64,000 bases of DNA from Bacteroidia bacterium. GTDB taxonomy: Bacteria > Bacteroidota > Bacteroidia > JANWJV01. The stretch covers positions 1,136 through 65,135 of the forward strand of contig JANWJV010000001.1 in assembly GCA_025451785.1 (NCBI GenBank), given 5' to 3'. Shown one piece after another: positions 12,229-34,076 of the stretch; within the stretch, counting starts at the first letter, position 1, and each line of letters opens with the position of its first letter. Below the pieces are notes generated by a model. That model saw only the letters and a list, made by a program, of their open reading frames with translations, was not told the origin of the DNA and made no database searches. The position numbers and the translations under genes are program-made.

Positions 12229-12397
12229 ACCGAAGGCCGCAAAGATACGTATATTTAAATGGTTTATTTTACAGGTATGACGGTTAAATACCCCGAAAAG
12301 ACACAAAAAATAAATTATTCACAGGCTGTTAATATCTAAATTGCACAAAACGCTCAAATTTCCTAAATTTGCCCATTATTTTTACAAAACGCTGAAA

Positions 12398-13642
12398 ATG
12401 AAGGACCTTTTTGACAAGATAAAAGCCAACCGCGGGCCCATCGGCCAGCATGCCAAAGAGTCGCACGGTTACTTTACCTTTCCTAAGCTGGAAGGCGATA
12501 TTGGCCCCCACATGGTTTTTCGCGGAAAAAAACGCCTTAACTGGAGCCTCAATAATTACCTGGGTCTTGCTGACCATCCCGAAGTGCGTAAGGCCGATGC
12601 GGATGGCGCCAAGGAATTTGGACTGGCATTGCCCATGGGTGCCCGCATGATGAGTGGCAACTCAAACAATCACGAGAAACTGGAGGCCGAGCTTTCTGCT
12701 TATGTTGAGAAACAAGATACCATTCTTTGCAATTACGGTTACCAGGCCATGGTTTCGGCCATCGATTGTTTGGTTGACCGACACGATGTGATCGTTTATG
12801 ATGGAGAGTCGCATGCCTGTATCCTTGACGGGGTGCGCCTGCACATGGGCAAACGTTATGTGTATAAGCACAATGATATTGCTGATTGCGAAAAGCAATT
12901 GCAGCGTGCCGCCAAGCTCATCGAAGGCACTAACGGCTCTATCCTGGTGATCACCGAAGGTGTTTTCGGGATGCGCGGAGATCAGGGAAGGCTGAAGGAG
13001 ATCGTTGCGCTCAAGAAAAAATATTCGTTCCGCCTGTTTGTTGATGATGCTCACGGCATAGGAACAATGGGCAAAAAAGGCGGCGGCACAGGCCAGGAGC
13101 AAGGCTGCCAGGACGGCATCGATATTTACTTCGGCACTTTTGCTAAATCATTTGCGCTCATAGGAGGTTTTATTTCGAGTGAAGAGCAGATCGTGGAATA
13201 CCTCCGTTACAATATGCGCTCACAGATATTCGCCAAATCGCTTCCCATGCCGCTGGTTGTTGGAGCGCTCAAGCGCCTTGAGCTTATGCGTAATCACCCT
13301 GAACTTCGTGAGAAACTTTGGGACATTACCCGCGCCCTTCAGAGCGGACTCAAAAAAGCGGGTTTCGACATTGGTGTGACCGATTCACCGGTAACACCCG
13401 TGTATATGAATGGCTCCATTCCCGAGGCCACCAATCTTATCTTCGACCTTAGGGAGAACTTCAATATCTTCTGCTCGATGGTGGTGTATCCCGTAGTGCC
13501 CAAGGGAATGATCATCCTGCGCCTCATCCCTACCGCGGTGCATACGCTGGAGGATGTGAACTATACGATCGAGGCGTTCTCTAAGATCGTAGGAAAACTT
13601 AAATCAGGACAATACATGGCCGATAAGATCGCCGCGACTTAA
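12398..13642 (+). CDS. PLP-dependent alpha-oxoamine synthase family acyltransferase (serine palmitoyltransferase / cysteate-fatty-acyltransferase-like)
   Basis: Class-II aminotransferase fold. The PLP-lysine motif GTFAKSFALIGGF resembles Spt (GTFTKS) more than BioF or Kbl. The start is taken at the internal Met MKDLFDKIK (12398); the ORF-track start is 12341. Confidence 0.75.
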   Translation: MKDLFDKIKANRGPIGQHAKESHGYFTFPKLEGDIGPHMVFRGKKRLNWSLNNYLGLADHPEVRKADADGAKEFGLALPMGARMMSGNSNNHEKLEAELSAYVEKQDTILCNYGYQAMVSAIDCLVDRHDVIVYDGESHACILDGVRLHMGKRYVYKHNDIADCEKQLQRAAKLIEGTNGSILVITEGVFGMRGDQGRLKEIVALKKKYSFRLFVDDAHGIGTMGKKGGGTGQEQGCQDGIDIYFGTFAKSFALIGGFISSEEQIVEYLRYNMRSQIFAKSLPMPLVVGALKRLELMRNHPELREKLWDITRALQSGLKKAGFDIGVTDSPVTPVYMNGSIPEATNLIFDLRENFNIFCSMVVYPVVPKGMIILRLIPTAVHTLEDVNYTIEAFSKIVGKLKSGQYMADKIAAT

Positions 13643-13887: not shown

Positions 13888-13925
13888 CCCGCCTGTGCTC
13901 TGCATGGGCGGGATTTTCTATTTTT
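13888..13925 (+). terminator. Rho-independent terminator after the histone-like gene
   Basis: Hairpin cccgcc-tgtgctctgcat-ggcggg followed by attttctattttt. It lies inside the 5' end of the track ORF 13895..15892, which argues for a later start for that gene. Confidence 0.55.
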
Positions 13926-13933
13926 ACATTCCA

Positions 13934-15892
13934 TTGAAAAAGCATCTTCTAATTTCCTTCCTCCTTTTGCTGTGTATCTGCGGCCCTGTACGGGCTACGG
14001 TTGATCCACTCTTTCAGCATCGTATGGATTCCCTTAAGAAGCTTCTTCCTGGTATGCAGGAGGATACGGTTCTTATTTATGTGCTTAACGAGCTTGGAAG
14101 GGAGTTGGTAGTACCGATGCCTGAGGAGGCCATCGAGTACGCGCGGAAGGCGCTTGCCCTGTCTACTGAGATGGAGCACATCCGGGGGATCGCAAGGGCT
14201 GAAAATATAATTGGCTGTTATTACGATGACAAGAACAATTACGCGGAGGCGCTTACACATTACTTCAAAAGCCTTGATGCCTGTGAGAAGAGCGGATGGA
14301 AGTTCATGGAGGCGAATACCCTTAACTATATAGGCATCGTTTACCTTGTAAGGGAAAATCATAAGGATGCGCGTAAGTTCCTTGAAAGAGCGAGGGATAT
14401 CGCGGAGGAAAGAAAGGACAAGTCACGCCTTGCCAGTATCCTTAACAACCTGGGGGTGGTGTATAAGGACCTTGGCGAGCTTGACAAGGCCATGGAATGT
14501 TATAAGAGGCAGCTCCAGGTGTTCGAAGAGCTTGGCCACAAGAAAGGCATTGGCTCGGTGTACATCAATATGGGTGTGGTGCACGACAAAAAAGGCGAGA
14601 ACGAGATCGCGATCGATTATAATTTTAAGGCCCTGGAAGTATTCCATGAGATCAACGATAATCTTGGGCTGGGCATTGCCTACATGAACGTTGCTGATAG
14701 TTATTGGAAGCACAAAGAGCCCGCCTTGTCGATCAAGTACATGCAACTGGGGGAAAAATACCTCATCGCCGCCGGCGACAGGAACTATATACAGGAAGCG
14801 TATAAAACATTCGCGCGAGGTTACCAGGGGATCGGCGACTATCGGCAGGCCTACGACTACCAGGTGCGTTACGATTCGTTAAAGGATATCATTTTCGGTG
14901 AAGAGAGCAACCGGCAGATCAACGAGCTGGAGACAAAATATGCTACCTCTGAAAAGGAAAAGCAGATAGAGCTGCAGAAGGAGCAGTTGGAGAAGAACCG
15001 CATCGTTACCTATGCCGCCATCATTGGCTCTGTGCTGATCCTTGGTTTACTTCTTGTTATTTTCAACCGTTACAAGCTAAAGCAGCGGGCTAATTCTCTG
15101 CTGGAGGCGCAGAACAAGATCATCGCCGAAAAACAGAAAGATATTACGGACAGTATCAATTATGCCAAGCGCATACAGGACGCCATATTGCCTGCCAAAG
15201 AGATCAAGTACCAGCTATTCCCCGATGCCTTTGTTATGCTCAAGCCGCGCGACAATGTGAGTGGTGATTTTTACTGGTTTGGCGAGCAAGAGGGCAAGCG
15301 GATCATCGCGGCTGTTGATTGTACGGGCCACGGGGTTCCGGGGGCTTTCATGAGCCTTATCGGCAACACGTTCCTCAACGAGATCGTGCACGAGTGTAAC
15401 ATTACTGTTCCTTCGGAGATACTCAGCGAGTTGAGGAACAGGATCATTAAATCACTGAAGCAAACATCATCTCTTGACGCCACCCGCGATGGAATGGATA
15501 TTGCCTTGCTTTGTTTCGATGACGCGAACCAGGTGGTGGAATACGCCGGCGCCAACAACCCGCTCTGGATCATCAGGAATGGTGAGATCATAGAGTTCCA
15601 GGCCGATAAAAGACCGATAGGATATTTCCAGGGCAAAGGACTCCCGTTCACCAATAATAAAACCACTTATCAGAAAGGCGACGCACTGTATGTTTTCACT
15701 GATGGCTATGCCGACCAATTTGGAGGCCCCGAAGGAAAGAAGTTCATGCGCAAACGGTTAAAGGAACTGCTGTTGATGATCCAGGACAAGAACATGGAAC
15801 AGCAGGAACGTTTCCTTGAAAAGACCTTCAATGACTGGAAAGGAGAGAAAGAGCAGGTGGACGATGTGCTCGTGATAGGCATCAGGGCCTAG
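13934..15892 (+). CDS. TPR-repeat, single-TM, PP2C/SpoIIE-family serine phosphatase (sensor phosphatase), paralog 1
   Basis: TPR units in the N-terminal half, a coiled coil (ELETKYATSEKEKQIELQKEQLEK), a TM helix (IVTYAAIIGSVLILGLLLVIF), then a PP2C domain (DVSGDFYWF…AVDCTGHGVPGAFMS…FTDGYADQ). The start is proposed at TTG 13934, giving signal peptide (M)KKHLLISFLLLLCICGPVRA, which parallels the paralog's MKKSLLLLFSL. The ORF track starts at 13895, inside the upstream terminator. Confidence 0.75.
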   Translation: MKKHLLISFLLLLCICGPVRATVDPLFQHRMDSLKKLLPGMQEDTVLIYVLNELGRELVVPMPEEAIEYARKALALSTEMEHIRGIARAENIIGCYYDDKNNYAEALTHYFKSLDACEKSGWKFMEANTLNYIGIVYLVRENHKDARKFLERARDIAEERKDKSRLASILNNLGVVYKDLGELDKAMECYKRQLQVFEELGHKKGIGSVYINMGVVHDKKGENEIAIDYNFKALEVFHEINDNLGLGIAYMNVADSYWKHKEPALSIKYMQLGEKYLIAAGDRNYIQEAYKTFARGYQGIGDYRQAYDYQVRYDSLKDIIFGEESNRQINELETKYATSEKEKQIELQKEQLEKNRIVTYAAIIGSVLILGLLLVIFNRYKLKQRANSLLEAQNKIIAEKQKDITDSINYAKRIQDAILPAKEIKYQLFPDAFVMLKPRDNVSGDFYWFGEQEGKRIIAAVDCTGHGVPGAFMSLIGNTFLNEIVHECNITVPSEILSELRNRIIKSLKQTSSLDATRDGMDIALLCFDDANQVVEYAGANNPLWIIRNGEIIEFQADKRPIGYFQGKGLPFTNNKTTYQKGDALYVFTDGYADQFGGPEGKKFMRKRLKELLLMIQDKNMEQQERFLEKTFNDWKGEKEQVDDVLVIGIRA

Positions 15893-16856
15893 TTAGCTCC
15901 GTGAAGCGCATCAGCTGATCTTTGCTGAAGGTCCACTCGGGCGTTTCCAGGTCACCGGTAAATTTCGTTTTGTACCAGGGGCTTAGTGCCGCGTCGCCGG
16001 GATTTCTGAGCAGGTGTATCTCTTGCGCGGGCATATAGCTTTGCTGAATGAGGAAGAGCTTCTCCCCTGTCCTATCGTTCTCCGCCATGTCAACAACGAG
16101 AACCGCATGTCCCGGAGATCCTCCGAGGATGAATACGTCTCCTGGCTGCATTTCATCAACGCTTACTTTCTTTAATTCCTTGCTGAGCGAAAGTGTACCT
16201 GCATAGGTAAAAACGATATCGAGGTATTGCCGGAAACAGGTATAGCTCTCGTCTTTGCCGGCTTTCTTTACCCAGCTTACTTTATTCCCTTTGATCACAG
16301 GCCGGTATCCATCGGTCCATTTGGTATAAGGCGCATCGTCGCCGCTGGTGAAACGGAAATGGATGTCATCGTAACGTTTTACCGAATAAAGATATTCGGC
16401 CCGCATGCGCATCACCGCGTCAGCGCATTGCTGCAGGTCGGTTTTGCCAGGATCGATGTCAACGATCGCGGCATGAGCATCCTGGTTGCCTTTTAGTTTA
16501 CCATTGTACAGGTGAACGTCAGGTTTGCCCTTGAGCAGCGGAAGGAAGCGCAGCCATTCGCCAAATGAGCCTTGCTTTACTAGCACTCGTTTGAATCCGG
16601 CGGGAACACCAATGCGGCTATGAAGGCTTTGGCTGCCATCATAGGCCTTGGTCCATGAATAGGCCAAATGCGCTGGCGCTCTTACCGAGGTGTCGGGCGG
16701 CAGTACAGCAGATCCCACTGGTTCATCGGCTTTGCTGGGGCCGCAGGAAGTTAATGCACCCATCAGTAAAGCAGTAAAAGCAAAGAGATGAAAAGAGAAA
16801 GTGAGCTTACTTGCTCTTGGTCTCCGCCTCAAAAGTGTAATCGGAGATGCTGACAT
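15882..16856 (-). CDS. Hypothetical lipoprotein (possibly DUF4846-like)
   Basis: The reading frame is long. The probable start is an internal Met giving …LFAFTALLMGALTSCGP (lipobox-like). It overlaps the 3' end of the giant repeat gene on the same strand and overlaps convergently by 11 nt with the PP2C gene. No family is confidently recognised. Confidence 0.5.
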   Translation of the reverse strand: MSASPITLLRRRPRASKLTFSFHLFAFTALLMGALTSCGPSKADEPVGSAVLPPDTSVRAPAHLAYSWTKAYDGSQSLHSRIGVPAGFKRVLVKQGSFGEWLRFLPLLKGKPDVHLYNGKLKGNQDAHAAIVDIDPGKTDLQQCADAVMRMRAEYLYSVKRYDDIHFRFTSGDDAPYTKWTDGYRPVIKGNKVSWVKKAGKDESYTCFRQYLDIVFTYAGTLSLSKELKKVSVDEMQPGDVFILGGSPGHAVLVVDMAENDRTGEKLFLIQQSYMPAQEIHLLRNPGDAALSPWYKTKFTGDLETPEWTFSKDQLMRFTELTRP

Positions 16857-19800
16857 CGTTCTTGAAATAATAGGTTCCGCCCCAGTTCCAGATCTTCTTG
16901 GTGTAAACATTGGCTTCGTTGTCTTTCACCACAATACGCCTTATCACCTTGCAGTTGGGCTCGTCCTGTGTTTCTTCAGTAACACCAGGGCCGTACTTCG
17001 CGAGAAGCGCGTTCATGAAAGCCTTTTTGCGCTCGTCTTCCGCCTTGCCGTCGGCAACAGTGGTTGCACTTCCAACTTTCTTAAGAAGTTCGTCTATCTC
17101 CTTGATCCGGTCCTTGGGGTATTTTTCGGAGGGCTTAATGGTGAGCGCATCAGAATAAGCTACCCTCGCCACCCTGTACTCCTTGTCGGCGAATAGTTTA
17201 TCAGCCTTTTCAATGGCTTCCTGGAACTTCTTGTCGTTCTCTGCTCCCCTCGCTTGCGCGTCAAGGATCTTATCGATCTCGGCGATCTTAGCCTTGGGAT
17301 ATTTTTCGTTGGGCTTAAAGTTGAGCGCTTCAGTATAAGCTGATTTCGCGCCGGCGTAATCCTTGATGCCAAAAGCCTTGTCGGCACGCGCCATGGCGTC
17401 GTTGTATTTCTGATCGGCCTCATGATCTTTGGCGTACCTGTCGAGGATCCCGTCGATCTCCTTCATCCTGTCCTTCGGATACTGTTCGTTGGGCTTATAG
17501 CTCGATGCCTCTGAATACAAAGGCCTGGCGCCTTCATAATCCTTTGCCGTAAACGCTTTGTCGGCCCTGGCAATGGCATCATTGTATTTCGCCTGCAGCT
17601 CCTTGTCCTTGGCCATATCCCCTACCAGTTTGTCGATCTCTGCGATCTTATCCTTGGGATATTTTTCATCGGGTTTAACACCAAGTGCTTCAGTGTATGT
17701 GTTCCTTGCTTTCGGGTAATCTTTCAGCGTAAAGGCCTGGTCGGCACGCGCAATGATCTCGTTGTACTTCTTCATGAGCTCATTGTTCTTCGCCATGTCC
17801 GCCAGCAGTTTCTCTATTTCCTTGAGTCTGTCCTTAGGATATTTCTCGGCAGGCTTCAGTCCTGATGCTTCGCTGTAACCGCCTTTTGCGGAAGTGTAGT
17901 CTTTCGCGTCAAAGGCCTTGTCGGCTTTTGCGATGGCGGCTTTGTAAGCGTTCTCCAGTTCTTTGCCTTTGTTCAAAGCAGCAAGAAGTTTGTCCACTTC
18001 CGCCAGTTTATCCTTCGGATATTTCTCAGCGGGCTTCAGGCCCAGCGCGTCGGTATAAGCTGTTTTGGCCGATACATAATCCTGTGTACCGAAGGCAGCA
18101 TCTCCTCTTGCAATGGCTGCATTGTATTTGTCGTTGAGCTCTTTCTCTTTGGCAAGACGGTCTTTTTCGGCCATCAGCTTCTCTATCTCCGCAAGTTTGT
18201 CCTTGGGATATTTTTCAGAGGGCTTATAACCCAGCGCTTCGTTGTAAGCAGCTTTTGCGGAAGTGTAATCTTGCGATCCGAAGCCCTTATCTCCTTTCGC
18301 GATGGCGTTCTGGTATTTTTGCTCCAGGTCTTTTGTCTTGGCAAGTTCAGCCAGCAGTCGGTCGATCTCGGCAAGTTTGTCCTTAGGGTATTTTTCGGCG
18401 GGCTTAATGCTTGCCGCTTCCGTATAACCGGCCTTTGCCATATTGTATTCCTTAGAAGCAAAAGTGGCATCGGCTTTCGCGATGGCATTCTTATAGCGTT
18501 CCTCCAGGTCCTTGTTCTTGGCAATGTCGGCAAGTATCTTGTCTATCTCGTAGATCTTGTTCTTGGGATATACTTCAGCAGGTTTTACTCCCAGCGCATC
18601 GTTGTAAGCCGTCTTGGCGTTCTCGTAATCTTTCGCGCCAAATGCCTTGTCGCCGCGGGCGATGGCGTCGTTATATTTTTGCTCTGCCTCTTTGCCTTTG
18701 GCAAGCTCAGCCAGCAGCCTGTCGCATTCAGCAATGCGGTCGGCGGGATATTTCTCTTCGGGCTTAATGCCTTGCGCCTCGGTATAAGAACCTTTGGCGC
18801 CATTGTAATCTTTCGCCTTGAAAGCAGCGTCGGCTTTGGTGATGGCAGCGAGGTAGTTCTTCTCCCTTTCTTTTCCTTTTGCCATATCACCAAGTATCTT
18901 GTCGATCTCAGCAAGTTTGTCCTTGGGATATTGTTCTCCCGGTTTCACCGCAAGCGCTTCGTTATACCCGATCTTGGCTGTGCCGTAGTCCTTCGCTGCA
19001 AAGCCTTTGTCGCCTTTGGCGATAGCGGCATTGTATCTATCCTCGAGCTGTTTGTTCTTTGCCGCGTCGGTTAAAATGCGGTCGATCTCCGCTAACTTGT
19101 CTTTGGGATATTTTTCAGCAGGCTTGAAACCGAGCGCCGCATTATAGCTTGTTTTCGCAGCAGAATAATCAGCAGCGGTGAAAGCCGCATCGGCTTTGGC
19201 AATGGCGGCGTTATATTTTTCGTTCAGCTCCTTGTCTTTGGCGTTCTTCGCCTGTTCGGCCAATAAACGGTCGATCTCAGCGATCTTATCCTTGGGATAT
19301 TTTTCGGCCGACTTGTAACCCAGCGCTTCGTTATAAGCCGCTTTGGCGGTAGTATAATCCTGCGCGCCAAAACCCTTGTCGCCCTTCTCTATCGCCTGTT
19401 TGTATTTTTCTTCCAGGTCTTTTGTTTTGGCCATGTCCGCCAGCAGCTTATCTATCTCCGCTATCTTTTGTTTGGGATAGGCTTCGGCAGGCTTAATACC
19501 CAATGCCTCATTGTAAGAACCTTTGGCGCCCTGGTAATCTTTACCAGCGAAAGCCTGGTCAGCCTTCGCGATGGCAGCGTTGTACTTTTCGTCAAGCTCT
19601 TTCTTCTTTGCCAGGTCACCCATCAGGCGGTCACACTCGGCTATCCTGTCGCGGGGATACTTCTCTTCAGGTTTGAATCCCATCGCCTCGGTGTAAAAGG
19701 TCTTGGCGGCAAGGTATTCTTTGGCCTTAAATGAATTGTCGGCCTTAACAATAGCCTCTTTGTATTTTACATCTGCCTCCTTCGCCTTCGCGATATCTCC

Positions 19801-21360
19801 CAATAACTTATCGCATTCGGCGATACGGTCGGTGGGATATTTCTCGCCGGGCTTTATGCCGAGCGCTTCGTTGTAGGTCACTTTGGCGCCCGCATAGTCT
19901 TTTCCGTTGAAGGAAAGGTCGGCCTTGGCGATCACCGCCTTGTATCGTTCGTCTTTCAGCTTATCCGCTTCAGCAGCGGCAAGCAAACGGGTGATCTCCG
20001 CCAGGCGGTCCTTAGGATATTGTTCAGAAGGTTTAAGCGTTAGCGCCTCGTTGTACCCTGCTTTGGCAGTACTGTAATCTTTCGCATCGAAGCCTTTATC
20101 TCCCTTCGCAACAGCAGCCTTGTAGGCGTCTTCGAGCTCCTTGTCCTTCGAAAGCTTGGCAAGTATGCCATCGATCTCAATGATCCTGTCGGTAGGATAT
20201 TTCTCACCCGGCTTAATGCCCAGCGCCTCGTTGTAAGCGGCCTTGGCACCCGCATAGTCCTTGCCGTTAAAGGCATTGTCGCCTTTGGTGATCGCATCCT
20301 TGTACTTCTGCTCTTTTGCCTTCTCAGCATCAACAGCGGCCAGCAGCTTGGCGATCTCGGCGATCTTGTCTTTGGGATATTGTTCGTTAGGCTTTATCAG
20401 TAATGCCTGCTCATAGCCCGACTTAGCGAAGGAATAGAGTTTGGTGTTGAAGGATTTGTCAGCATTCGCGATAGCAGCACGGTATTTCTCATCGAGTTCG
20501 CGCTGCTTCTGCTGGTCGGCGAATAGCTTGTCGATCTCGGCGATCTTTTGCTTGGGATAGGCTTCGTTCGGTTTTATTCCAAGCGCTTCGGTATATGCGG
20601 CCTTGGCGCCTGCCCATTCCTTTACGGTCATGTTCTGGTCGCCCCGGGTGATCGCGTCTTTGTACTTCTGCTCCTTTTCCTGGTCGCCTTTCATTGAGGC
20701 GAGCATCTTGTCGCACTCTGCGATCTTTGTCTTGGGATATTGCTCTTCAGGTTTGAAGTTGGTAGCTTCGGTAAAAGCGGCTTTGGCTCCGGTGTAATCC
20801 TTCGCGGCAAACGCTTTGTCACCACGCGCTACCGCGTTCTTGTAATTCTCTTCCGCCGACCTTCTCGATTGTTCTTCGAGTTCCTGTAGTCTGCGCAGGG
20901 CGTCCTGTATCGACTGCGTGTAAGCCTTGTCGTAATCAAAATCTTCTTCGGAGGTTTCGTATTTTACTTTGGCGAGTGGCTGGTTCAAAATGGAGTAATC
21001 AACACCTTTAAGCGCGTCGAATATAGAGATGGTCATGTCCATGCCAGCGAAGCCAGCTTTGCCGCGTTCGTCGGGAACGTTCCTGGTGTTAAAACTGAAT
21101 CGCTTAGTGATGTGCCCTGACTTGGTGACGGTGATCATATAGTCACTGTTAGGCATCAATGTAAAGTCGAATTTTCCGCTGGAAGAAGTTGTGACCTGTT
21201 TTACCATGGAGGAGCCCTGGTAAAGGGTAACGATGGCACCGTCAAGCTTTTTGCCAGCCTTCTCTACCTTTCCGCTTACTTTGAAATCCCAGTCCTGGGC
21301 AACTACGGCAGTGGAAAGCAACAGCAGAAGGCCGGCAAGCATTTTGCCGCACAATTTCAT
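16807..21360 (-). CDS. Giant secreted tandem-repeat protein: signal peptide, CarboxypepD_reg-like beta-sandwich, about 21 repeats of 60-63 aa (TPR-like helical hairpins), short unique C-terminal domain
   Basis: The start is taken at MKLCGKMLAGLLLLLSTAVVAQD (21360); the ORF-track start is 21429. The N-terminus (KVSGKVEKAGKKLDGAIVTLYQG…GKFDFTLMPNSDYMITVTKSGH) looks like a carboxypeptidase-regulatory fold. The repeat consensus is KYNxAIAKADKAFxAKDYxxAKxAYNEALGxKPxEKYPKDKIAEIDKLLAxxAKxKELEE. The C-terminus …CKVIRRIVVKDNEANVYTKKIWNWGGTYYFKNDVSISDYTFE is unassigned. There is no OmpA domain. Confidence 0.8.
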   Translation of the reverse strand: MKLCGKMLAGLLLLLSTAVVAQDWDFKVSGKVEKAGKKLDGAIVTLYQGSSMVKQVTTSSSGKFDFTLMPNSDYMITVTKSGHITKRFSFNTRNVPDERGKAGFAGMDMTISIFDALKGVDYSILNQPLAKVKYETSEEDFDYDKAYTQSIQDALRRLQELEEQSRRSAEENYKNAVARGDKAFAAKDYTGAKAAFTEATNFKPEEQYPKTKIAECDKMLASMKGDQEKEQKYKDAITRGDQNMTVKEWAGAKAAYTEALGIKPNEAYPKQKIAEIDKLFADQQKQRELDEKYRAAIANADKSFNTKLYSFAKSGYEQALLIKPNEQYPKDKIAEIAKLLAAVDAEKAKEQKYKDAITKGDNAFNGKDYAGAKAAYNEALGIKPGEKYPTDRIIEIDGILAKLSKDKELEDAYKAAVAKGDKGFDAKDYSTAKAGYNEALTLKPSEQYPKDRLAEITRLLAAAEADKLKDERYKAVIAKADLSFNGKDYAGAKVTYNEALGIKPGEKYPTDRIAECDKLLGDIAKAKEADVKYKEAIVKADNSFKAKEYLAAKTFYTEAMGFKPEEKYPRDRIAECDRLMGDLAKKKELDEKYNAAIAKADQAFAGKDYQGAKGSYNEALGIKPAEAYPKQKIAEIDKLLADMAKTKDLEEKYKQAIEKGDKGFGAQDYTTAKAAYNEALGYKSAEKYPKDKIAEIDRLLAEQAKNAKDKELNEKYNAAIAKADAAFTAADYSAAKTSYNAALGFKPAEKYPKDKLAEIDRILTDAAKNKQLEDRYNAAIAKGDKGFAAKDYGTAKIGYNEALAVKPGEQYPKDKLAEIDKILGDMAKGKEREKNYLAAITKADAAFKAKDYNGAKGSYTEAQGIKPEEKYPADRIAECDRLLAELAKGKEAEQKYNDAIARGDKAFGAKDYENAKTAYNDALGVKPAEVYPKNKIYEIDKILADIAKNKDLEERYKNAIAKADATFASKEYNMAKAGYTEAASIKPAEKYPKDKLAEIDRLLAELAKTKDLEQKYQNAIAKGDKGFGSQDYTSAKAAYNEALGYKPSEKYPKDKLAEIEKLMAEKDRLAKEKELNDKYNAAIARGDAAFGTQDYVSAKTAYTDALGLKPAEKYPKDKLAEVDKLLAALNKGKELENAYKAAIAKADKAFDAKDYTSAKGGYSEASGLKPAEKYPKDRLKEIEKLLADMAKNNELMKKYNEIIARADQAFTLKDYPKARNTYTEALGVKPDEKYPKDKIAEIDKLVGDMAKDKELQAKYNDAIARADKAFTAKDYEGARPLYSEASSYKPNEQYPKDRMKEIDGILDRYAKDHEADQKYNDAMARADKAFGIKDYAGAKSAYTEALNFKPNEKYPKAKIAEIDKILDAQARGAENDKKFQEAIEKADKLFADKEYRVARVAYSDALTIKPSEKYPKDRIKEIDELLKKVGSATTVADGKAEDERKKAFMNALLAKYGPGVTEETQDEPNCKVIRRIVVKDNEANVYTKKIWNWGGTYYFKNDVSISDYTFEAETKSK
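17050..20860 (-). repeat. In-frame tandem DNA repeats of about 180-189 bp, 21 copies, encoding the protein repeats of the giant gene
   Basis: The period is visible in the translation. Every unit carries (E/Q)(K/Q/A)YPKDK(I/L)AEID and KDYxxAK. Coordinates are approximate. Confidence 0.7.
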
Positions 21361-21558
21361 CCCGACATTTTTCAGAGGCACACCCAATGGGTTGAGGGTG
21401 ATGCCACGATCCGGCCTTTGAAAGCTCATAAACTGTCCGCTAGAAAAGTTTTTTCACAAGTTAGCAAATATCGTAAAATAATGCCAAGTTTGATACTTTT
21501 GACGCTTATTTTAATTCCGGGTTTAATTGACATTATTTCCCGTCTTTTACGGTAAACT

Positions 21559-22689
21559 ATGAACTGGAGTTTTTGGGAATACGAAACATTTTTCAACAAA
21601 ATCGACGTTGCTGTTGTTGGTAGCGGACTGGTAGGCCTTAACGCCGCGCTTAGCCTGAAGCTGCAACAACCGAAACTGAATGTGCTCGTGCTTGAACGAG
21701 GAATACTCCCATCGGGAGCAAGTACCAAGAACGCAGGGTTCGCCTGCTTCGGAAGTCCCTCCGAATTACTGGATGACCTTGGTCGTGGCAGCGAGGAAAA
21801 AGTATTTGCGCTTGTTGAAAAAAGGTGGAAAGGCCTTCGCCGTTTAAGAAGGATCCTTGGTGATAAGGCCATTGCCTACGAAGGCTTTGGTGGATTCGAG
21901 GTTTTTACTGATAATGAGCTGTATGGTGCTTGTGAAGAGAACATTGATCTTCTCAACAAAAACCTTCGAAAAGTAACAGGCATTCCAGCGGTATATCGTA
22001 AGGCAGACGGGGCCATAAAAAAGTTTGGCTTGAAAGGGGTGGGTCACATCATTGAGAACACCGCCGAGGGTCAGATAGATACCGGTAAAATGATGCGCGC
22101 CCTGATATCGAAAGTTCAAAGCAAAGGCATCACGATCCTGAACGGTTTTCCTGTGAAAGAGATACGCGATACAGGAAGTTACGCTGAGATAGAGGCGGAA
22201 GACGGCTTTGTTTTTCGCTGTGGAAAAGTGCTGGTGGCTACCAATGGTTTCGCGAAACAATTACTTCCCTCCTACCCTGTTCAGCCGGCGCGTGCGCAGG
22301 TGCTCATTACCTCACCGCTTAAAAGCCTGAAGCTGAAAGGCACTTTTCATATGGACAGAGGTTATTATTATTTCCGTAATGTGGGCAGGCGTGTGCTGCT
22401 TGGCGGAGGGCGGAACCTTGACTTCGAAGGAGAGGAAACATTTGAAGCGGGTTTGACGGAAAGGATACAAAAGAGCCTCGAGGAATTATTGGCAACTGTT
22501 ATTCTCCCCGGGGAGAAGTTCGAGATAGAGCGCCGCTGGAGCGGGATCATGGGACTCGGCGGCGAAAAATCATACATCGCGAAAGCGGCTTCTAAGAACG
22601 TTTTTGTAGCTGTACGCATGGGCGGAATGGGCGTCGCCATCGGCAGCCTGGTGGGTGAAGAGGCCGCTGGCCTGGTATTGAACTCCTGA
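21559..22689 (+). CDS. FAD-dependent oxidoreductase (DAO / glycine-oxidase-like family)
   Basis: N-terminal Rossmann motif DVAVVGSGLVGLNAALSL. 376 aa, DAO-like length and layout. Confidence 0.75.
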   Translation: MNWSFWEYETFFNKIDVAVVGSGLVGLNAALSLKLQQPKLNVLVLERGILPSGASTKNAGFACFGSPSELLDDLGRGSEEKVFALVEKRWKGLRRLRRILGDKAIAYEGFGGFEVFTDNELYGACEENIDLLNKNLRKVTGIPAVYRKADGAIKKFGLKGVGHIIENTAEGQIDTGKMMRALISKVQSKGITILNGFPVKEIRDTGSYAEIEAEDGFVFRCGKVLVATNGFAKQLLPSYPVQPARAQVLITSPLKSLKLKGTFHMDRGYYYFRNVGRRVLLGGGRNLDFEGEETFEAGLTERIQKSLEELLATVILPGEKFEIERRWSGIMGLGGEKSYIAKAASKNVFVAVRMGGMGVAIGSLVGEEAAGLVLNS

Positions 22690-22799: not shown

Positions 22800-22865
22800 G
22801 TCTGATAATGAGCTTGTTAATGTTCATTTTTTTGCTCAAATTTGCTTGTTTTAAAGCCCCTGTTA

Positions 22866-25800
22866 ATGCACAAAGCGATCCCCGTTAAATTTTGCCTGTT
22901 TTTTTTATTGCTTTTTGCTGCCCGGTCCAGTGCCCAATTCAACCAATGGACCTGGATGGCTGGCGACAATCTTACCAACCAGGCAGGGGTATACGGAACA
23001 CAGGGTGTTGGCAATGCCGCTAACAAACCCAGCGCCCGTTATGAAGGCGGCGGCGAATGGATAGACCTGCAAGGAAACTTCTGGCATTTTGGCGGTGGCG
23101 GTTTTGCTTCTTCCCGCAGCGATCTCTGGAAATACGATCCCAATACGAATATCTGGACCTGGATGAAAGGCCCTACTACTCCCGCGGTGCCCGGTGTTTA
23201 CGGCACTATGGGTGTGGCCAACATTGCTAACTGCCCGGGGGGACGAGCTTTCGCCTCTCTCACTTGGGTGGACCTGGCAGGAAACTTCTGGCTGTTCGGC
23301 GGTTCGGGCTATAACAACACTTCCACTTCAGGCCGCCTCAGCGATCTTTGGAAATACGATCCTATCACTAACATGTGGACCTGGATGAACGGCCCTATGA
23401 CGGTGAACACGCAAGGTGTTTACGGTACCAAGGGAGTTGCCAGCGCTGCCAACCGCCCCGGAGGGCGTGATGAAACAGATGCTGCCTGGGTAGATGCCCA
23501 GGGCAATTTCTGGATCTTTGGTGGTTACGGTTACGATGGTGTTGGTGGCTTCGGCTGTTTGAACGACCTCTGGAAATACGATCCCATCACCAACCAATGG
23601 ACCTGGGTGAGCGGCGATAACCTTGCCAACCAGGTGGCGGTTTACGGCACCAAGGGAATTGCCAACGCGGCAAACAAGCCTGACGGCCGTATGCAATACG
23701 CAAGCTGGAAAGATAACGCCGGCAACTTCTGGATCTTCGGCTCCAGGGGCGGAAGCGCGTTTACCCAACACGATGATCTTTGGAAATACGATCCTGTTAC
23801 GAACATGTGGACCTGGATGAAGGGCGCCGCGGGAGCGGGAAATGCTTCTGGCACCTACGGCACCAAGTGTGTTGACGGACCTAACAACAATCCTCCCGCA
23901 CTCTATGAGAACCGCTGCCGCTGGGAAGATGATTGCGGCAATCTCTGGCTTTGGGGCGGCAACAGTCACAACGATCTTTGGCGATACAGTCAGACTACGG
24001 GCAACTGGACCTGGGTGAGCGGTTCGAACCTTACGGGGCAGGCAGGTGTATATGGCACCAAGGGCGTTTCGAACGCCACCAATATGCCGGGCGCGCGCTG
24101 CGGCAATCTGCCCTTCAGGAGGAAGAACACCAATGAACTTTGGTTCTTCGGCGGCGGCCTTCCTGGTGACTTCAATGATTTCTGGAAATACGTTCCCGAT
24201 AAACCTGTGGCGTCTTTTACTTTTAATCCCAACAACGCCTGCGCGCCTATCGCGGTGGCATTTACTAATACAAGCACGCCCGGTTGTAACGAAATAAAAT
24301 CATCAGCATGGAACTTCGGTGATCCGGGCTCGGGCGCCAACAACGTTTCAACGCTTACCAATCCCAATCATACGTTCAACACACCCGGCAGCTATACGGT
24401 TAAGCTGGTGGTGACGAATTGCACCGGCAGTAAAGATTCTACCACCGCTATTGTTACAGTAACCTCCTGCGGTTTCGTGGTGAATGCCACCGGCTCGAAC
24501 ATTTGTTCCGGTTCTTGCGGATCGGTGACCACCACCTGCCTTGCAGGAACATCGCCTTACACCTATTCCTGGAATACAGGTGCCACTACTTCGAACATCA
24601 ATCCCTGCCCTACTGTTACTACGATCTACACGGTGGTGGTCACTGACGCCAACGCCGCCACCGCTTCGGCAACGGCGCAGGTAACGGTGAGCCCGCCCAT
24701 GACACTGGGAACAAATACTGTTGATGTAAAATGCAACGGAGGCTTTACAGGTTCAGCTACGGTAAGCAGCATCACAGGCGGTACTTCGCCCTACACCTAT
24801 TCCTGGGCGGGAGGTTTTGGGACCACAGGCTTCGCTACGGGATTATCGGCGGGAAATTATTCCATCACGATCACCGACTCGTTCGGGTGTACCAAAACGG
24901 CCGGCTTTGTTGTGAACCAGCCCACCGCGCTAGTGCTCAACCCAGGATCGGCAGCGGTGCTATGTAACGGCGGCAGTACCGGGTCCGCTTCCGTAACGGC
25001 AAGCGGTGGAACCACTTCGTACACCTACGCCTGGAACAACGGACAAACAAACGCTAACGCTACGGGCCTCAGTGCAGGTACCTATACAGTAACTGTTACT
25101 GACGCGAATGCATGTACCAAGTCGGTGACGGTTTCCGTAACGCAGCCCACGGCTATCATAACGACCACTACTGTAACCGCTTCTACTTGTACTTTGGGCG
25201 GCACCGCCACAGCTAGCAGCGGCGGCGGAACAGGAGTGTATTCGTATTTGTGGAGCAACGGACAAACAACGCAAACAGCTACGGGTCTTGCTATAGGAAA
25301 TTACACCGTTACAGTCAGTGACGCGAACAACTGTACCCAAACAGCAACAGCTTCTATCATTGGAACCTCAGGTCCTACTGCCGGTATAAGTATTGCGAAC
25401 AATCTGAAATGCTTTAACGATAACAGTGGTAGTACTACTGTAACAGCTACCGGTGGTACCGGTTCCTATACTTATTCCTGGAACAACGGACAAACAAACG
25501 CGAATGCTACGGGCCTTAACGCTGGAAGCTATACGGTGACCGTTACCGATAACAATGGCTGTACCTTCACGGTGAGCGTAGCGCTTACCGAACCGGCGGT
25601 TCTGGTGGCCACCGCTACCGGCGCCAATGCCTGCCAGAACGCTACCGCAAATGGAAACGCGGTTGGCGGAACGGTAAACTATAATTACCTCTGGAGCAAC
25701 GGCCAGGCAACACAAAATGCCACCGGCCTTTCCACGGGCGTTTACACTCTTACTGTTACTGACGCTAATGGATGTACCGCTACTGATACCGCGGTGGTGA

Positions 25801-26603
25801 ACATCAGCCCTCCCCCGATCATTGTGTTTACTGTTGATGATTCGGCGGGCTGTGTAGCGCTCTGTGTCAACTTCACTTGTAACACTGCTAACATCGTTGC
25901 TTATACCTGGGATTTTGGTGATGGCAGCACTATTGTTACCGGAACAATAAATACCCAGGCGCATTGCTATAAACAAACAGGGACATTCAGTGTAACGCTT
26001 ACGGTGACCGATAACAAAGGCTGCACGGCGACCTTGACAAAGAACAATATGATCTTTGTTTATCCCAATGTGGTAGCCGCCTTTAACGCGTCGCCACAAC
26101 CTACAACTATTCTCAATCCCATTATTACGTTCACCGACCAGAGCACCGGCGGTCCGAATACCTGGAGCTGGACCTTCTTTGACGATGGAGCAACAAGCGC
26201 TCTTCAAAACCCTAAACACGCCTACAAGGACAGCGGCTGCTTTAACGTGGAACTCATTGCCAATAACCAATACAATTGTCCTGACACGGTGAGTGAACAG
26301 GTATGTATACAGGGTGATTACGAATTATACGCGCCCAACGCGTTCACTCCCGATGGCAGTGGGCTGAACGATGTGTGGAATGTGAAGGGCATCGGTATCG
26401 ACCCGAACAATTTTAAGCTTTGGATCTTCGACCGCTGGGGAGATCTTATTTACGAAACCTCGGACCTTTACAAAGGCTGGGATGGACGTGCCAATGGCGG
26501 CAAGGACATCGCGCAGCAGGATGTGTATGTGTGGAAGGTGGCGACGAAGGATTTCCAGGGAGGAAAGCATTCTTACATCGGACATATTAACCTCGTTAGA
26601 TAA
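22866..26603 (+). CDS. T9SS type-B sorted cell-surface adhesin-like protein 1: signal peptide, 6-7-blade Kelch/galactose-oxidase-type beta-propeller, PKD, about 9 SprB repeats, 2 PKD, gliding-motility C-terminal domain (CHU_C)
   Basis: Propeller blades repeat as WTWMxG…GVYGTxGV…AAN(K/R)PG…G-FW-FGG…DLWKYDP. SprB-type units: CNGGxTGSAxV…GGTSPYTYSW(N/S)NGQT…ATGLxAGxYTVTVTDANGC. C-terminus: YELYAPNAFTPDGSGLNDVWNVKGIGID…DRWG…VYVWK…GHINLVR, the type-B CTD. The start is taken at MHKAIPVKF (22866); the alternative upstream Met is at 22842. Confidence 0.85.
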   Translation: MHKAIPVKFCLFFLLLFAARSSAQFNQWTWMAGDNLTNQAGVYGTQGVGNAANKPSARYEGGGEWIDLQGNFWHFGGGGFASSRSDLWKYDPNTNIWTWMKGPTTPAVPGVYGTMGVANIANCPGGRAFASLTWVDLAGNFWLFGGSGYNNTSTSGRLSDLWKYDPITNMWTWMNGPMTVNTQGVYGTKGVASAANRPGGRDETDAAWVDAQGNFWIFGGYGYDGVGGFGCLNDLWKYDPITNQWTWVSGDNLANQVAVYGTKGIANAANKPDGRMQYASWKDNAGNFWIFGSRGGSAFTQHDDLWKYDPVTNMWTWMKGAAGAGNASGTYGTKCVDGPNNNPPALYENRCRWEDDCGNLWLWGGNSHNDLWRYSQTTGNWTWVSGSNLTGQAGVYGTKGVSNATNMPGARCGNLPFRRKNTNELWFFGGGLPGDFNDFWKYVPDKPVASFTFNPNNACAPIAVAFTNTSTPGCNEIKSSAWNFGDPGSGANNVSTLTNPNHTFNTPGSYTVKLVVTNCTGSKDSTTAIVTVTSCGFVVNATGSNICSGSCGSVTTTCLAGTSPYTYSWNTGATTSNINPCPTVTTIYTVVVTDANAATASATAQVTVSPPMTLGTNTVDVKCNGGFTGSATVSSITGGTSPYTYSWAGGFGTTGFATGLSAGNYSITITDSFGCTKTAGFVVNQPTALVLNPGSAAVLCNGGSTGSASVTASGGTTSYTYAWNNGQTNANATGLSAGTYTVTVTDANACTKSVTVSVTQPTAIITTTTVTASTCTLGGTATASSGGGTGVYSYLWSNGQTTQTATGLAIGNYTVTVSDANNCTQTATASIIGTSGPTAGISIANNLKCFNDNSGSTTVTATGGTGSYTYSWNNGQTNANATGLNAGSYTVTVTDNNGCTFTVSVALTEPAVLVATATGANACQNATANGNAVGGTVNYNYLWSNGQATQNATGLSTGVYTLTVTDANGCTATDTAVVNISPPPIIVFTVDDSAGCVALCVNFTCNTANIVAYTWDFGDGSTIVTGTINTQAHCYKQTGTFSVTLTVTDNKGCTATLTKNNMIFVYPNVVAAFNASPQPTTILNPIITFTDQSTGGPNTWSWTFFDDGATSALQNPKHAYKDSGCFNVELIANNQYNCPDTVSEQVCIQGDYELYAPNAFTPDGSGLNDVWNVKGIGIDPNNFKLWIFDRWGDLIYETSDLYKGWDGRANGGKDIAQQDVYVWKVATKDFQGGKHSYIGHINLVR

Positions 26604-26613
26604 TAACCAATAA

Positions 26614-29600
26614 ATGAAAAACGCCCTTTCAATTCTTATCGCTTTGTTCTTGCTCCTAAAGGCGGACGCCCAGTCGGCACCCGGAGGCTGGACGACTGAT
26701 CCTTTCAGGCAGCATGCTTTCATTGAGAACAAAGGACAGTTCGATGGCAAAGACAAGCGCAGGAACAGCGAGATCATGTACGGTGTCTCCAATGATGGCG
26801 TTGATATTTATTTTACGAAGGAAGGAATTACCTGGAGGCATGACCGGTCAGAAAGGGAAGAAAAGAAAATGCTTCCGATCATTGGAGGGAAAATAGAGGA
26901 AGAAGAGGAAAAAATAGAGCTCATCGCCCACATGGCCCATATGAACTGGGAAGGCGCCGACGCTAATGTAAAGATCATCGCGAGCGATCCCATTACCTCC
27001 TACTACACCTATCCTGACCTTAGTGATCGTTCTGGAAATAAAACGCTCAAGGCTTTTGCTTATAAGAAGATCAGGTATCAAAACCTTTACCCGGGTATTG
27101 ATGTTGAGTTCGTGGTTCACGAAAAGAGCGGGGTAAAATACAGTCTCCATCTCCAGCCAGGCGCCAATGCTTCGCTGGTAAAGATGATCTACAAAGGGAT
27201 AGAGGGAATATCAAAGGACGCGGAAGGGAATATTCGTGTTAGTACCCGATTCGGTGAACTGGTTGACCATGCTCCTTCCAGTTTTTACCAGGGTGGAAAA
27301 GGTATCATTTCTTCTTTTGAGTTGAAGGGGTCATCGGTAAGTTTTAAAATGGGAACCTACGATCATTCCAAAAGCGTGGTGATCGATCCCTGGCTTGCGA
27401 ACCCGAATTACACTGGCTTTAACTCCGCTTACGACGTTAACTTCGACGTGGCGGGTAACGTATATGCCTGCGGCTCTTACAATCCTTTCAAACTGGTAAA
27501 GGTCAATAACGCCGGCGCGGTGCAATGGACCTTCAACGCGGCTCAGATCAACGCGACCTATTACGGTGATTTCGCTACAGACGAGGGGACGGGTACCTGC
27601 TACATAGTGGAGGGCCTCAACAACGGACAGGGCTCCAACATTCTTAAAGTAAACAACCAGGGAATACAAACAGCGAAGTTCAACGGCAATACCCAGATCA
27701 CAGAGATGTGGCGCTGCGAGTACAACCGCTGCATCAAGAAGATCGTTATTGCGGGCGGCGGTGTGAGCTTTACCTTCCAGGCGGCGATGATGGATACTTC
27801 TATGTCGACACTCACTCCTGTGAACGTACTTTCCACCAATAAGACCTTTCGCGATATGGCTTTGCTGGGCATCGATAACAACAGCAATTTCTGTTACATG
27901 AGCACCACCAAATCGGTGAGCGCGCCTACCATCGCCGATGACAATATCCTCATCAAGTGTCCTATTCCCGCGCTGATACCACTGGGTTTCGCGATACGCA
28001 CCTTTCATCGCATCGGAGAGATGGGCAGCGTTTGTTATGTGAACAATATGGTGCCGAACGGCAACGCGCCGGCGGTTGGGTTTAACGGGCTTACAGTAAG
28101 CCCTACCGGTGTTTATACTTATGACAGCGATTCGGTGAAACGCTGGAACAAAAATACCGGCGCATTGCTCGCTGCGATCGATGCTTCTGCCACTGCTCCC
28201 ATCTACGCGGGTTATACCGGCAGTGAGATACAGGTAAAATGGGGCGGCATTTGGGCCGATGAGTGCGATAACCTTTACGTGGGTGTTGATAAGGCGATCA
28301 AGTGTTATAACAGTAACCTTACCCTTACAAATACGATCGCGCTTTCGAACACAGTGTTCGATGTGAAGCTGGGGGTCAATAACAAGCTCTACGCTTGCGG
28401 TGTGGGCTTTGTGCAGGAGATCGCTGTAACACCATTGAATAAGACAATTACAATGAGCGCTACTCCTTCTACCGGTTGCAGCGGTTGCAGCGGTACGGCT
28501 ACGGCAAACATCACTTGCGGCAACGGTAACCTTTCGGGATACGGTTATAGCTGGTCGCCGGGCGGACAGTCGACACAAACGGCTACTGCCCTTTGCGCGG
28601 GTATCTATACGGTAACCGTTACCAGCTATTGTGTGAACTCCATGAGCGCTACCGTGCAGGTAACAGGCGGCAGCGGCAGCGGTCTTGTTGTTGCCGGCAG
28701 TACCATTGGCGGCGGCTGCGGATCACTGGGAAGCGCTTCAGCGACTTCTTCGAGCGGTACCGGCCCTTATACTTACAGTTGGAATCCCACAGGACAAAAT
28801 ACGCAGACGGCCACCGGGCTTACGAACGGAACTTATACGGTTACTATTACCGATGCTAATGGTTGCAGCGGAACCACTTCGATCAACGTGACCAACAATG
28901 GAAGTCTTACCGCGAACACCACATTCTCTAATGTGCTGTGTAATGGCGGCGTTAACGGCACCGCATCAGTTACAGCAAGCGGCGGGAGCGGTACCATGAC
29001 CTATTCCTGGAGCAACGGGCAAACAAACCAAACGGCGACTGGACTTGGTTCGGGAACCTACACTGTTACGGTAACCGATAATAGCGGCTGCAGTACCAGC
29101 AAAACAATAAGTGTAACGCAGCCTGCAGCGCTCGCGCTTAACCAGGGCCAGGTGAATGCCGGTTGTAATACCACAGGCAGCGCTTCGGTGACAGCAAGCG
29201 GCGGTACAGGCGCATTCACATATTCATGGAACAACGGACAAACCTCGCAAACGGCAACCGGCCTTGCCGCGGGCAGCTATACGGTTACAGTTACTGACAA
29301 TAACGGCTGCAGCACAACGGCAGCCTATACTATAACGGGCGGCGTGGGCCCTACTATCAGCGGTGTGAACCCAACGAACGTATTGTGTAACGGCGGCACG
29401 AATGGCTCCGCTACCGCTACCGGCACAGGTGGCACAGGCACCCTCACCTACTCCTGGAGTAACGGACAAGCCACATCAAATGCTACTGGTCTTACGGCGG
29501 GAACGTATACTGTTACTGTGACCGATAACAATGGCTGCAGCACCACCACTACTGTGATCGTTACCGAACCTCCTGTTCTTACGGTGAATGCCAACGGAAC

Positions 29601-34068: not shown

Positions 34069-34076
34069 AAAGACCT

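Follow-up and report, generated by a model that had tools for sequence, protein, structure and literature searches.

A gene on the minus strand of the 64,000-nucleotide stretch of Bacteroidia bacterium DNA analysed here (the window; contig JANWJV010000001.1) encodes a large protein that consists mostly of one helical unit repeated head to tail, and raises the question of what such an array builds and what it might be for. The gene lies at 16807..21360, with its start ATG at 21360 and its stop codon at 16807-16809. The initial annotation had these limits right but gave a length of 1,510 aa; the correct length is 1,517 aa. The open reading frame itself spans 16807..21429, and translation from another ATG upstream, at 21429, would lengthen the protein to 1,540 aa. 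The layout described in that annotation, in which a signal peptide and a beta-sandwich precede some 21 regular helical units and a unique C-terminal domain, was upheld. More than 1,639 homologues were found with E ≤ 1e-10, so the repeat protein is real and goes beyond chance. Its NCBIfam matches were just weak ones, to TraC, PorW/SprE and SscB, far under their cut-offs, and an Rfam scan of the whole window returned no RNA families. A Pfam match to Glyoxalase (E 5e-13), to which no single stretch corresponded, was dismissed as an artefact of repeats and composition.

The first 21 residues, MKLCGKMLAGLLLLLSTAVVA (21298..21360, minus strand), read by eye and set beside the N-termini of homologues, resemble a signal peptide, as had been proposed. 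Cleavage by signal peptidase I is predicted, again by eye, between A21 and Q22, just ahead of QDW. The same A/Q junction recurs in many homologues and corresponds to the Bacteroidetes 'Q-rule'. The protein was also said to have no lipobox, and this is correct: the signal ends in VVA before QDW and the sole early cysteine is residue 4. A surface location, which had been considered as well, is not supported, as both type IX C-terminal sorting domains, PF18962 (type A) and PF13585 (type B), are absent from the repeat protein in Pfam searches even at E up to 10, though the same library detects such domains in five further proteins encoded in the window. The apparent signal peptide and the absence of other sorting signals make it most likely that the protein is Sec-exported and non-lipidated and belongs to the periplasmic part of the cell envelope.

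The array (aa 172-1431; 17068..20847, minus strand) was delimited by YP dipeptide anchors, which span aa 208 to 1414, by a unit HMM and by AlphaFold2 (AF2) modelling. Exactly 21 units make it up: 19 are 60 aa long and two (units 9 and 15) are 63 aa long, in agreement with the earlier count of about 21 near-regular repeats of 60-63 aa. The HMM gave 21 matches, each with E < 1e-24, and none elsewhere when the window was translated in all six frames. The array does dominate the protein, but its measured share (taken over aa 172-1437) is 83% rather than about 85%. At the protein level the units share a mean identity of 56% (range 38-77%).

It had been argued that the number of repeats might vary by slipped-strand or recombinational change, which would make the protein a candidate variable surface or periplasmic scaffold. 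In a stronger form of this reading it would be a variable or phase-variable surface protein whose repeat number shifts fast by slipped-strand mispairing or recombination between units. The units are indeed regular and in frame, and their number differs widely among distant relatives. In the closest relative, which is 74% identical, the second 63-aa unit stands at position 14, not 15, and units 10-17 have scrambled best matches, which points to turnover of units during evolution. At the DNA level, however, the units share a mean identity of 61% and a maximum of 74%, and the longest exact match between units extends over 26 nt. Tandem Repeats Finder detected no array of about 180 bp period in 16000-22000, so instability of the repeats as DNA is rejected. 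The closest relative likewise has 21 units, of which units 1-5, 7-9, 12 and 18-21 are in 1:1 orthology with those described here, though across the family the count runs from 0 to about 27. With no surface-sorting signal detected by Pfam either, rapid variation of this kind is very improbable.

Pfam and NCBIfam place the unit in no named family beyond a generic TPR, much as had been thought. Its first 34 aa form the helix-turn-helix motif, with the small/large signature, that characterises the TPR clan (CL0020): A21, Y25, A28 and P33 of the unit correspond to TPR positions A20, F24, A27 and P32. A profile search of the PDB matched the unit to TPR3 of PP5 together with its capping helix (1a17; E 3e-7). 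Pfam matches to the whole protein were weak, both for TPR_2 and for TPR_8, which scored 27.8 bits over the whole protein (cut-off 25.7) with no single stretch passing alone. What is conserved within the units is this TPR structural signature and a KPxExYP turn; the conservation thus looks structural, with core and turn residues kept.

These matches could be taken to indicate a conventional TPR solenoid, that is, a scaffold with a superhelical groove in which a peptide or protein ligand is bound in many copies, and an NlpC/P60-like product of the adjoining gene would recall the pairing of NlpI with MepS. The restriction of conservation to core and turn positions argues against this, as does the period, which is 60 or 63 aa with one TPR motif per unit and not the 34 aa of motifs stacked laterally into a right-handed superhelix. 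In the AF2 model of the N-terminal domain with five units (mean pLDDT 92.1) helices of 39 and 14 residues alternate, one of each per unit; the linkers are helical, and the continuous 39-residue helices join the units lengthwise. The AF2 models had a low pTM, 0.41-0.46, which is to be expected when a chain is elongated. No solved TPR structure aligned beyond ~100 residues at low rmsd.

The lengths of units in relatives bear on the same point. In 2,499 intervals from 160 non-identical relatives, the lengths were 56/57, 60, 63/64, 67 and 70/71, the bins between being nearly empty, and their periodicity peaked at 3.6 residues (R = 0.75). As unit lengths step by one helical turn, the helix between units would be continuous and phase-locked. 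These steps provide support from sequence, independent of the model, for a rod with a continuous inter-unit helix. The solenoid that the initial annotation put forward is at odds both with this limitation of insertions and deletions to whole helical turns and with the AF2 model, and it appears unlikely.

Simple helix geometry, a back-of-envelope estimate of length and straightness, suggests a rod of ~75-80 nm at ~3.6-3.9 nm per unit. This would be ~3 times the usual periplasmic width, and orthologues vary in length from ~860 to >2,000 aa; a fixed perpendicular ruler is therefore disfavoured.

Ahead of the array lies a beta-sandwich of the transthyretin / CarboxypepD_reg type (aa 23-144; 20929..21294, minus strand). 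Its Pfam score for CarboxypepD_reg (PF13620) over aa 28-88 was 31.0 bits against a gathering cut-off of 32.3. The domain has a transthyretin-like beta-sandwich fold, in agreement with the CarboxypepD_reg-like sandwich placed here from the outset. A lead-in helix (aa 145-171; 20848..20928, minus strand; within helix 123-163 of the AF2 model) continues unbroken into helix A of unit 1.

At the other end, a linker (SATTVAD, about aa 1432-1438; 17047..17067, minus strand), marked by pLDDT <50 at residues 64-72 of the model, leads to an alpha+beta domain of ~79 aa (aa 1439-1517; 16810..17046, minus strand), which was delimited by alignment and by a pLDDT of 80-96. The AF2 model of the last unit with this domain (pLDDT 86.4) shows a helix, five strands and a short helix, and the motif of the domain is YPxGxTEE...RRIVV...WGGxYYFKxxxxIS. 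Its HMM matched the last 75 aa of the repeat protein with E 1.6e-33, and the domain occurs in at least 1,478 representative clusters, always in C-terminal position. The domain had been described as unique; it proves to be conserved and confidently folded, and it has no named family. Searches against Pfam (E up to 10) and PDB sequences gave noise only, and a Foldseek search of the model against the PDB gave nothing significant, the best E value being 0.05 (SMC head, PUR repeat, cystatin-fold design). The spacers that it follows are diverse: some proteins have between 0 and 27 units, others MORN repeats or a charged helix (AEAKAK). In protein P0121 and its neighbour it is doubled in tandem after a Zn-ribbon and a transmembrane helix.

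We also considered whether this domain might be a new sorting signal, in which case the protein would be a fibril or adhesin, secreted or on the surface, and exported through the type IX system or by another route. The domain is always at the extreme C-terminus, as secretion signals are, a type IX system is present in the genome, with many of its cargo proteins encoded close by, and a rod of ~80 nm would be too long to cross the periplasm. Known type IX signals, however, are sandwiches of roughly seven strands, unlike the predicted helix and five strands, and their two Pfam families were unmatched, as described above. The tandem pair behind a Zn-ribbon and transmembrane helix is also easier to reconcile with a periplasmic module for binding than with an export tag. 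A fibril or adhesin of this kind seems unlikely.

A further alternative is an anchor or force transducer spanning the periplasm, like TolA, TonB or the OmpA family, in which the C-terminal domain would replace OmpA as the binder of peptidoglycan or outer membrane. One orthologue swaps the units for the TolA-like charged AEAKAK helix, the N-terminal domain resembles the periplasmic N-terminal extension (NTE) of SusC transporters (PMC7782687), and genes for small outer-membrane barrels lie downstream at 17 of 54 related loci. On the other hand, the signal peptide looks cleavable, so there would be no membrane anchor, orthologue length varies several-fold, and TonB_C, TolA and OmpA gave no match in the repeat protein at any threshold. 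That the protein does not end in an OmpA domain had been remarked before, and rightly: none was found in the whole protein or, with E values up to 10 admitted, in its C-terminal domain, and PF00691 is listed for none of the best 120 homologues. An anchor of the TolA or TonB type is accordingly a distinctly unlikely reading.

The repeat protein belongs to a family, defined here as class A, that combines a beta-sandwich, a helical spacer and the YPxGxTEE...WGGxYYFK C-terminal domain. Both end domains were found at 55 complete loci in named Bacteroidota genomes, and the family spans Flavobacteriales, Sphingobacteriales, Chitinophagales and Bacteroidales, with the cultured Acidiluteibacter ferrifornacis S-15 among its carriers. 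The annotation of its members goes no further than 'hypothetical' or 'TPR' protein. In one orthologue of 434 aa, whose gene occupies the corresponding genomic position beside the DAO gene (below), units are missing altogether. Judged by these comparisons, the end domains are the conserved parts of the family and the array varies between them. No characterised member was found in the literature on DUF4846, on CarboxypepD_reg/TPR/OmpA proteins, on SprC/SprD or on the SusC NTE.

The neighbouring genes point to possible partners. A DUF4846 lipoprotein gene (15882..16856, minus strand; PF16138, E 3e-104) lies downstream and overlaps the 3' end of the repeat gene by 50 nt. Its signal, MSASPITLLRRRPRASKLTFSFHLFAFTALLMGALTS, is followed directly by cysteine and carries the lipobox LTSC. 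The overlap with a lipoprotein gene had been recognised earlier, and a terminator scan found none between the two genes, which are probably co-transcribed. DUF4846 proteins are predicted to be NlpC/P60-like (PMC10318531). In relatives the extra neighbours are a small outer-membrane beta-barrel (OMP_b-brl) and a secreted 336-aa protein (unk336). DUF4846 is a same-strand neighbour at 18 of 54 related loci, and at 33 of the 54 unk336, OMP_b-brl and/or DUF4846 lie downstream on the same strand. Neither DUF4846 nor the 336-aa protein gave any match to PDB sequences. On the other side, a gene for an FAD-dependent oxidoreductase of the DAO family (21559..22689, plus strand; PF01266, E 5e-42) diverges from the repeat gene, and is a divergent neighbour at 25 of 53 related loci. 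Part of the synteny of DUF4846 (18/54) and DAO (25/53) may be mere genome relatedness.

We consider the chances about even that the protein is a long, stiff periplasmic rod acting as the tether or spacer of an envelope module. After cleavage of the signal peptide, the transthyretin-like sandwich would head the 21 units. Each unit would comprise a TPR-like pair of helices, A and B, and a helix C that runs unbroken into helix A of the next, so that three-helix bundles are strung head to tail with spectrin-like connectivity. A short flexible linker would then lead to the ~79-aa alpha+beta domain that is the signature of the family. The two end domains would be the working parts and the array a spacer or tether that sets the length between them. 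The likely partner of the protein is the co-transcribed DUF4846 lipoprotein, the predicted NlpC/P60-like papain-fold enzyme, and in relatives the partners probably include the small outer-membrane beta-barrel and the secreted 336-aa protein, giving a module associated with the envelope or cell wall. Of this picture, the analysis shows the anatomy, the fold as predicted, the family and the synteny, while location, rod length, partners and role are inferred.

More tentatively, and as a possibility that we think rather doubtful, the family could represent a previously undescribed sort of envelope rod, a TPR-derived, spectrin-like periplasmic filament that forms a Bacteroidota-specific structural module with the small outer-membrane barrel, the secreted partner and the NlpC/P60-like lipoprotein. 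The length of such a filament could be adjusted both through how many units it has and through how many whole helical turns each unit contains, and a conceivable role for the module lies in organising the remodelling of the cell wall or the spacing of the envelope within the plane of the wall.

If the rod prediction holds, a single TPR motif has been concatenated lengthwise through a shared helix into a rigid rod tens of nm long, and the quantisation of unit length by single turns is a clear evolutionary signature of rigidity. The family is large and unannotated (>1,600 homologues have the repeats and at least 1,478 clusters the C-terminal domain), and its place in a conserved cluster of exported proteins offers a lead on the poorly understood organisation of the Bacteroidota envelope. 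Family models could be made from its two domains and one repeat type, and the length of the rod is a testable prediction.

The CarboxypepD_reg/transthyretin-like fold is typical of Bacteroidota envelope proteins, and a similar domain forms the periplasmic NTE of SusC-type TonB-dependent transporters, although in the present protein it has ~40 extra residues and heads a soluble rod, not a beta-barrel transporter. As the role of the NTE is itself still unknown (PMC7782687), this likeness yields no function for the domain.

In E. coli the NlpC/P60 endopeptidase MepS is paired with NlpI, a small TPR lipoprotein adaptor with a canonical groove. The present locus likewise pairs, at the level of the genes, a TPR-type envelope protein with an NlpC/P60-like lipoprotein, but the repeat protein is non-lipidated, 1,517 aa long and predicted to have no groove. 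The TPR signature in the first 34 aa of each unit is shared with PP5 (1a17), whereas TPR proteins have tandem 34-aa motifs and not one motif per 60-aa unit. In the predicted rod the capping helix enters the next unit and so extends the chain lengthwise, instead of closing a sideways superhelix with a groove.

The connectivity is closer to that of spectrin, alpha-actinin and bacterial EzrA, in which, as in the AF2 model, three-helix bundles follow one another in series, each repeat ending in a helix that carries on as the first helix of its successor. It is the helix connectivity alone that is common to them, as Pfam found no match to the spectrin repeat (PF00435) in the repeat protein; the unit has 60 aa, not ~106 aa, the core of the bundle is TPR-derived and the protein is probably exported, not cytoplasmic. 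Rods of the spectrin type, with a helix shared by adjacent repeats, serve as elongated spacers between terminal functional domains.

The repeat-protein gene occupies an ORF at 16807..21429 on the minus strand, and translation from the ATG at 21360 gives 1,517 aa, where the initial annotation had given 1,510 aa. The near-regular array of 60-63-aa tandem repeats that it described is real. YP dipeptides, used as repeat anchors from aa 208 to 1414, divide the array into exactly 21 units, of which units 9 and 15 have 63 aa and the other 19 have 60 aa. A unit HMM matched the ORF 21 times (E < 1e-24 for each) and matched nothing else in a six-frame translation of the window. The G+C content of the gene is that of the window.

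The units average 56% identity as protein (range 38-77%) and 61% as DNA (maximum 74%), and the longest exact word common to them is 26 nt. With DNA identity this low, no array detected at the gene by Tandem Repeats Finder and also 21 units in the closest relative, P0002 (74% identity), the earlier suggestion that copy number could change by slippage is unsupported here. A phase-variable surface protein was likewise not favoured by the tests run. Orthology with P0002 is clearly 1:1 for units 1-5, 7-9, 12 and 18-21; the second 63-aa unit is number 14 in P0002 and 15 in our protein, and the best matches in mid-array are scrambled, which points to slow turnover of units. Complete genes with the same C-terminal domain (class A, see below) from the genome loci encode 0 to 26 units, and the homologue P0004 has 27. 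Copy number thus varies over evolutionary time.

A profile of the unit matched TPR3 and the capping helix of PP5 (E 3e-7), so that by sequence the unit is TPR-derived. Fold matches of the helical part were all TPR or MIT three-helix proteins, over 60-100 residues only, and no solved structure spanning several units was found among them. An AF2 model of the N-terminal beta-sandwich and five units gave, for each unit, a long helix of 39 residues, a turn of 3, a second helix of 14 and the KPxE turn of 4 residues. The presence of the 39-residue helix in every unit implies that helix C and the following unit's helix A form one helix, and the inter-unit linker segments have pLDDT values of at least 88-89.

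Unit length was then compared across 160 non-identical family proteins, which contain 2,499 YP-to-YP intervals. Lengths of 56/57 aa (541 intervals), 60 aa (1,090), 63/64 aa (279), 67 aa (101) and 70/71 aa (280) were found and the bins between them were nearly empty; a 3.6-residue period gave the highest vector strength (R = 0.75). Such quantisation implies that indels are tolerated only as whole alpha-helical turns, the pattern expected of units that are joined by an unbroken helix and cannot change their orientation to one another. The TPR-like solenoid proposed initially is argued against by this lengthwise joining in the AF2 model and by the turn-quantised lengths in relatives, which support a predicted stiff, phase-locked rod rather than a solenoid or beads on a string. 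A scaffold presenting a TPR groove was not favoured either. The long helix is offset along the preceding one by about 26 residues, and helix geometry would give a rise per unit of about 3.6-3.9 nm, or 75-80 nm for 21 units.

The protein begins MKLCGKMLAGLLLLLSTAVVA/QDW, a signal peptidase I-like signal with Gln at +1. The A/Q junction is also present in many homologues and fits the Bacteroidetes Q-rule, by which Gln stands at +1 after the signal peptidase I cut. Neither kind of type IX secretion signal was detected by Pfam in this protein; five others encoded in the window did show them. As an alternative, a type IX fibril was not favoured by the tests run. Elsewhere in the window, four consecutive large genes at 22842-37775 (+), encoding 1,253, 1,320, 1,163 and 1,232 aa, form a paralogous array of likely surface adhesins. 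All four products have SprB repeats together with PKD domains and a CHU_C type-B signal, and two also have DUF7948. A 661-aa protein at 47798-49783 (+) has a BNR-like region and a type-A signal (Por_Secre_tail), so that signals of type A and type B are both in use in this genome.

A second AF2 model, of the last unit and the C-terminus (34 homologues, pLDDT 86.4), showed a short disordered linker at about aa 1432-1438 and then a compact domain, aa 1439-1517, in which one helix precedes five strands and a short second helix follows them (block pLDDT 80-96). This domain matched neither a Pfam family at E up to 10 nor any PDB sequence, and had no significant match to PDB folds. A search of 1.84 billion proteins with its profile gave 1,478 representative clusters, at the extreme C-terminus in all. 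The whole protein has >1,639 homologues at E <= 1e-10, all annotated as hypothetical or TPR, and they divide into class A, with this domain, and class B, with another C-terminus (...NNWISLYPQGGDVEV...). An anchor of the TolA/OmpA kind was not favoured. None of the best 120 homologues lists OmpA. The spacer ahead of the domain differs greatly between proteins: in P0158 it is a TolA-like charged AEAKAK helix, and elsewhere it is 0 to about 27 units, one unit plus a charged coil, or MORN repeats. P0121 and its tandem paralogue have two copies of the domain after a Zn-ribbon and a transmembrane helix, an arrangement that puts it on the non-cytoplasmic side of the membrane and counts against a role as an export tag. 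Tandem paralogues of this type (locus L089, 1201-3102 and 4328-5167) are separated by about 1.2 kb from a downstream gene whose product has the GldM 3rd and 4th domains.

The genome scan gave 79 loci in Bacteroidota, nearly throughout in metagenome-assembled genomes: Flavobacteriales (Vicingaceae, Acidiluteibacter, Fluviicola), Sphingobacteriales, Chitinophaga-labelled MAGs, and Bacteroidales and Marinilabiliales (Salinivirgaceae, Prolixibacteraceae, Draconibacterium). At locus L006 (15288-21552) a family member ending in units without a terminal domain, P0042, adjoins a type II CRISPR-Cas locus (Cas9, Cas1, Cas2), probably by coincidence.

The putative lipoprotein gene noted at the 3' end was confirmed: it lies at 15882..16856 (-), starts 50 nt inside the repeat-protein gene with no terminator-like site between the two, and encodes a lipoprotein signal (MSASPITLLRRRPRASKLTFSFHLFAFTALLMGALTS/C) and DUF4846 (E 3e-104). 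DUF4846 has been classed as a probable NlpC/P60-like papain-fold domain (PMC10318531), and the window protein has a Cys (QQCAD) and a His (PGHAVLV). Among assessable class-A loci, a divergent DAO-family oxidoreductase gene lies upstream in 25 of 53, and one or more same-strand genes lie downstream in 33 of 54, namely DUF4846 (18), a small outer-membrane barrel, OMP_b-brl (17), and a conserved secreted protein of about 336 aa, unk336 (20). The repeat protein and these three downstream products are all exported. Seven loci have the complete order, repeat protein-unk336-OMP_b-brl-DUF4846; the arrangement in the window is the minimal one, repeat protein-DUF4846, and lacks unk336. The latter, without a Pfam or PDB sequence match, is immediately 3' of the repeat-protein gene in, for example, L001, L009 (12552-13562), L012, L018, L020, L034, L086 and L088.

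Around these genes, a 148-aa ORF at 21426-21872 (-), directly upstream of the repeat-protein gene and on its strand, overlaps the oppositely oriented DAO gene, has no family match and is probably not a gene. Convergent with the DUF4846 gene is one (13895-15892, +) of two genes for paralogous 665-aa proteins (the other at 61240-63237, -), with an N-terminal TPR_12 array and a C-terminal SpoIIE/PP2C phosphatase; they are SiaA-like, with scores far below the NCBIfam cut-off. For a BioF/Kbl-family PLP enzyme at 12341-13642 (+), the top-scoring NCBIfam model was that of the Bacteroidota serine palmitoyltransferase (300 bits against a cut-off of 640), so the enzyme may act in sphingolipid synthesis.

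The protein is very probably exported and non-lipidated, with a stiff helical rod separating its two conserved end domains. Its function and location we infer from this architecture and from the hydrolase-lipoprotein and barrel neighbours, which argue tentatively for a periplasmic tether or spacer of an envelope or cell-wall module. The rod would be of evolvable length; its gene neighbours one for a lipoprotein predicted to be a cell-wall-type hydrolase and, in relatives, also one for an outer-membrane barrel. Against a fixed perpendicular ruler across the periplasm stand the estimated length, about 3x the periplasmic width, and the several-fold variation in length among orthologues; a better fit is a tether of the in-plane or reach type.

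The C-terminal domain family, the turn-quantised unit length and a lengthwise rod of 60-aa repeats combining known parts are undescribed in the libraries and literature searched. The parts themselves, a TPR motif, a transthyretin-like sandwich and spectrin-like connectivity, are already known.
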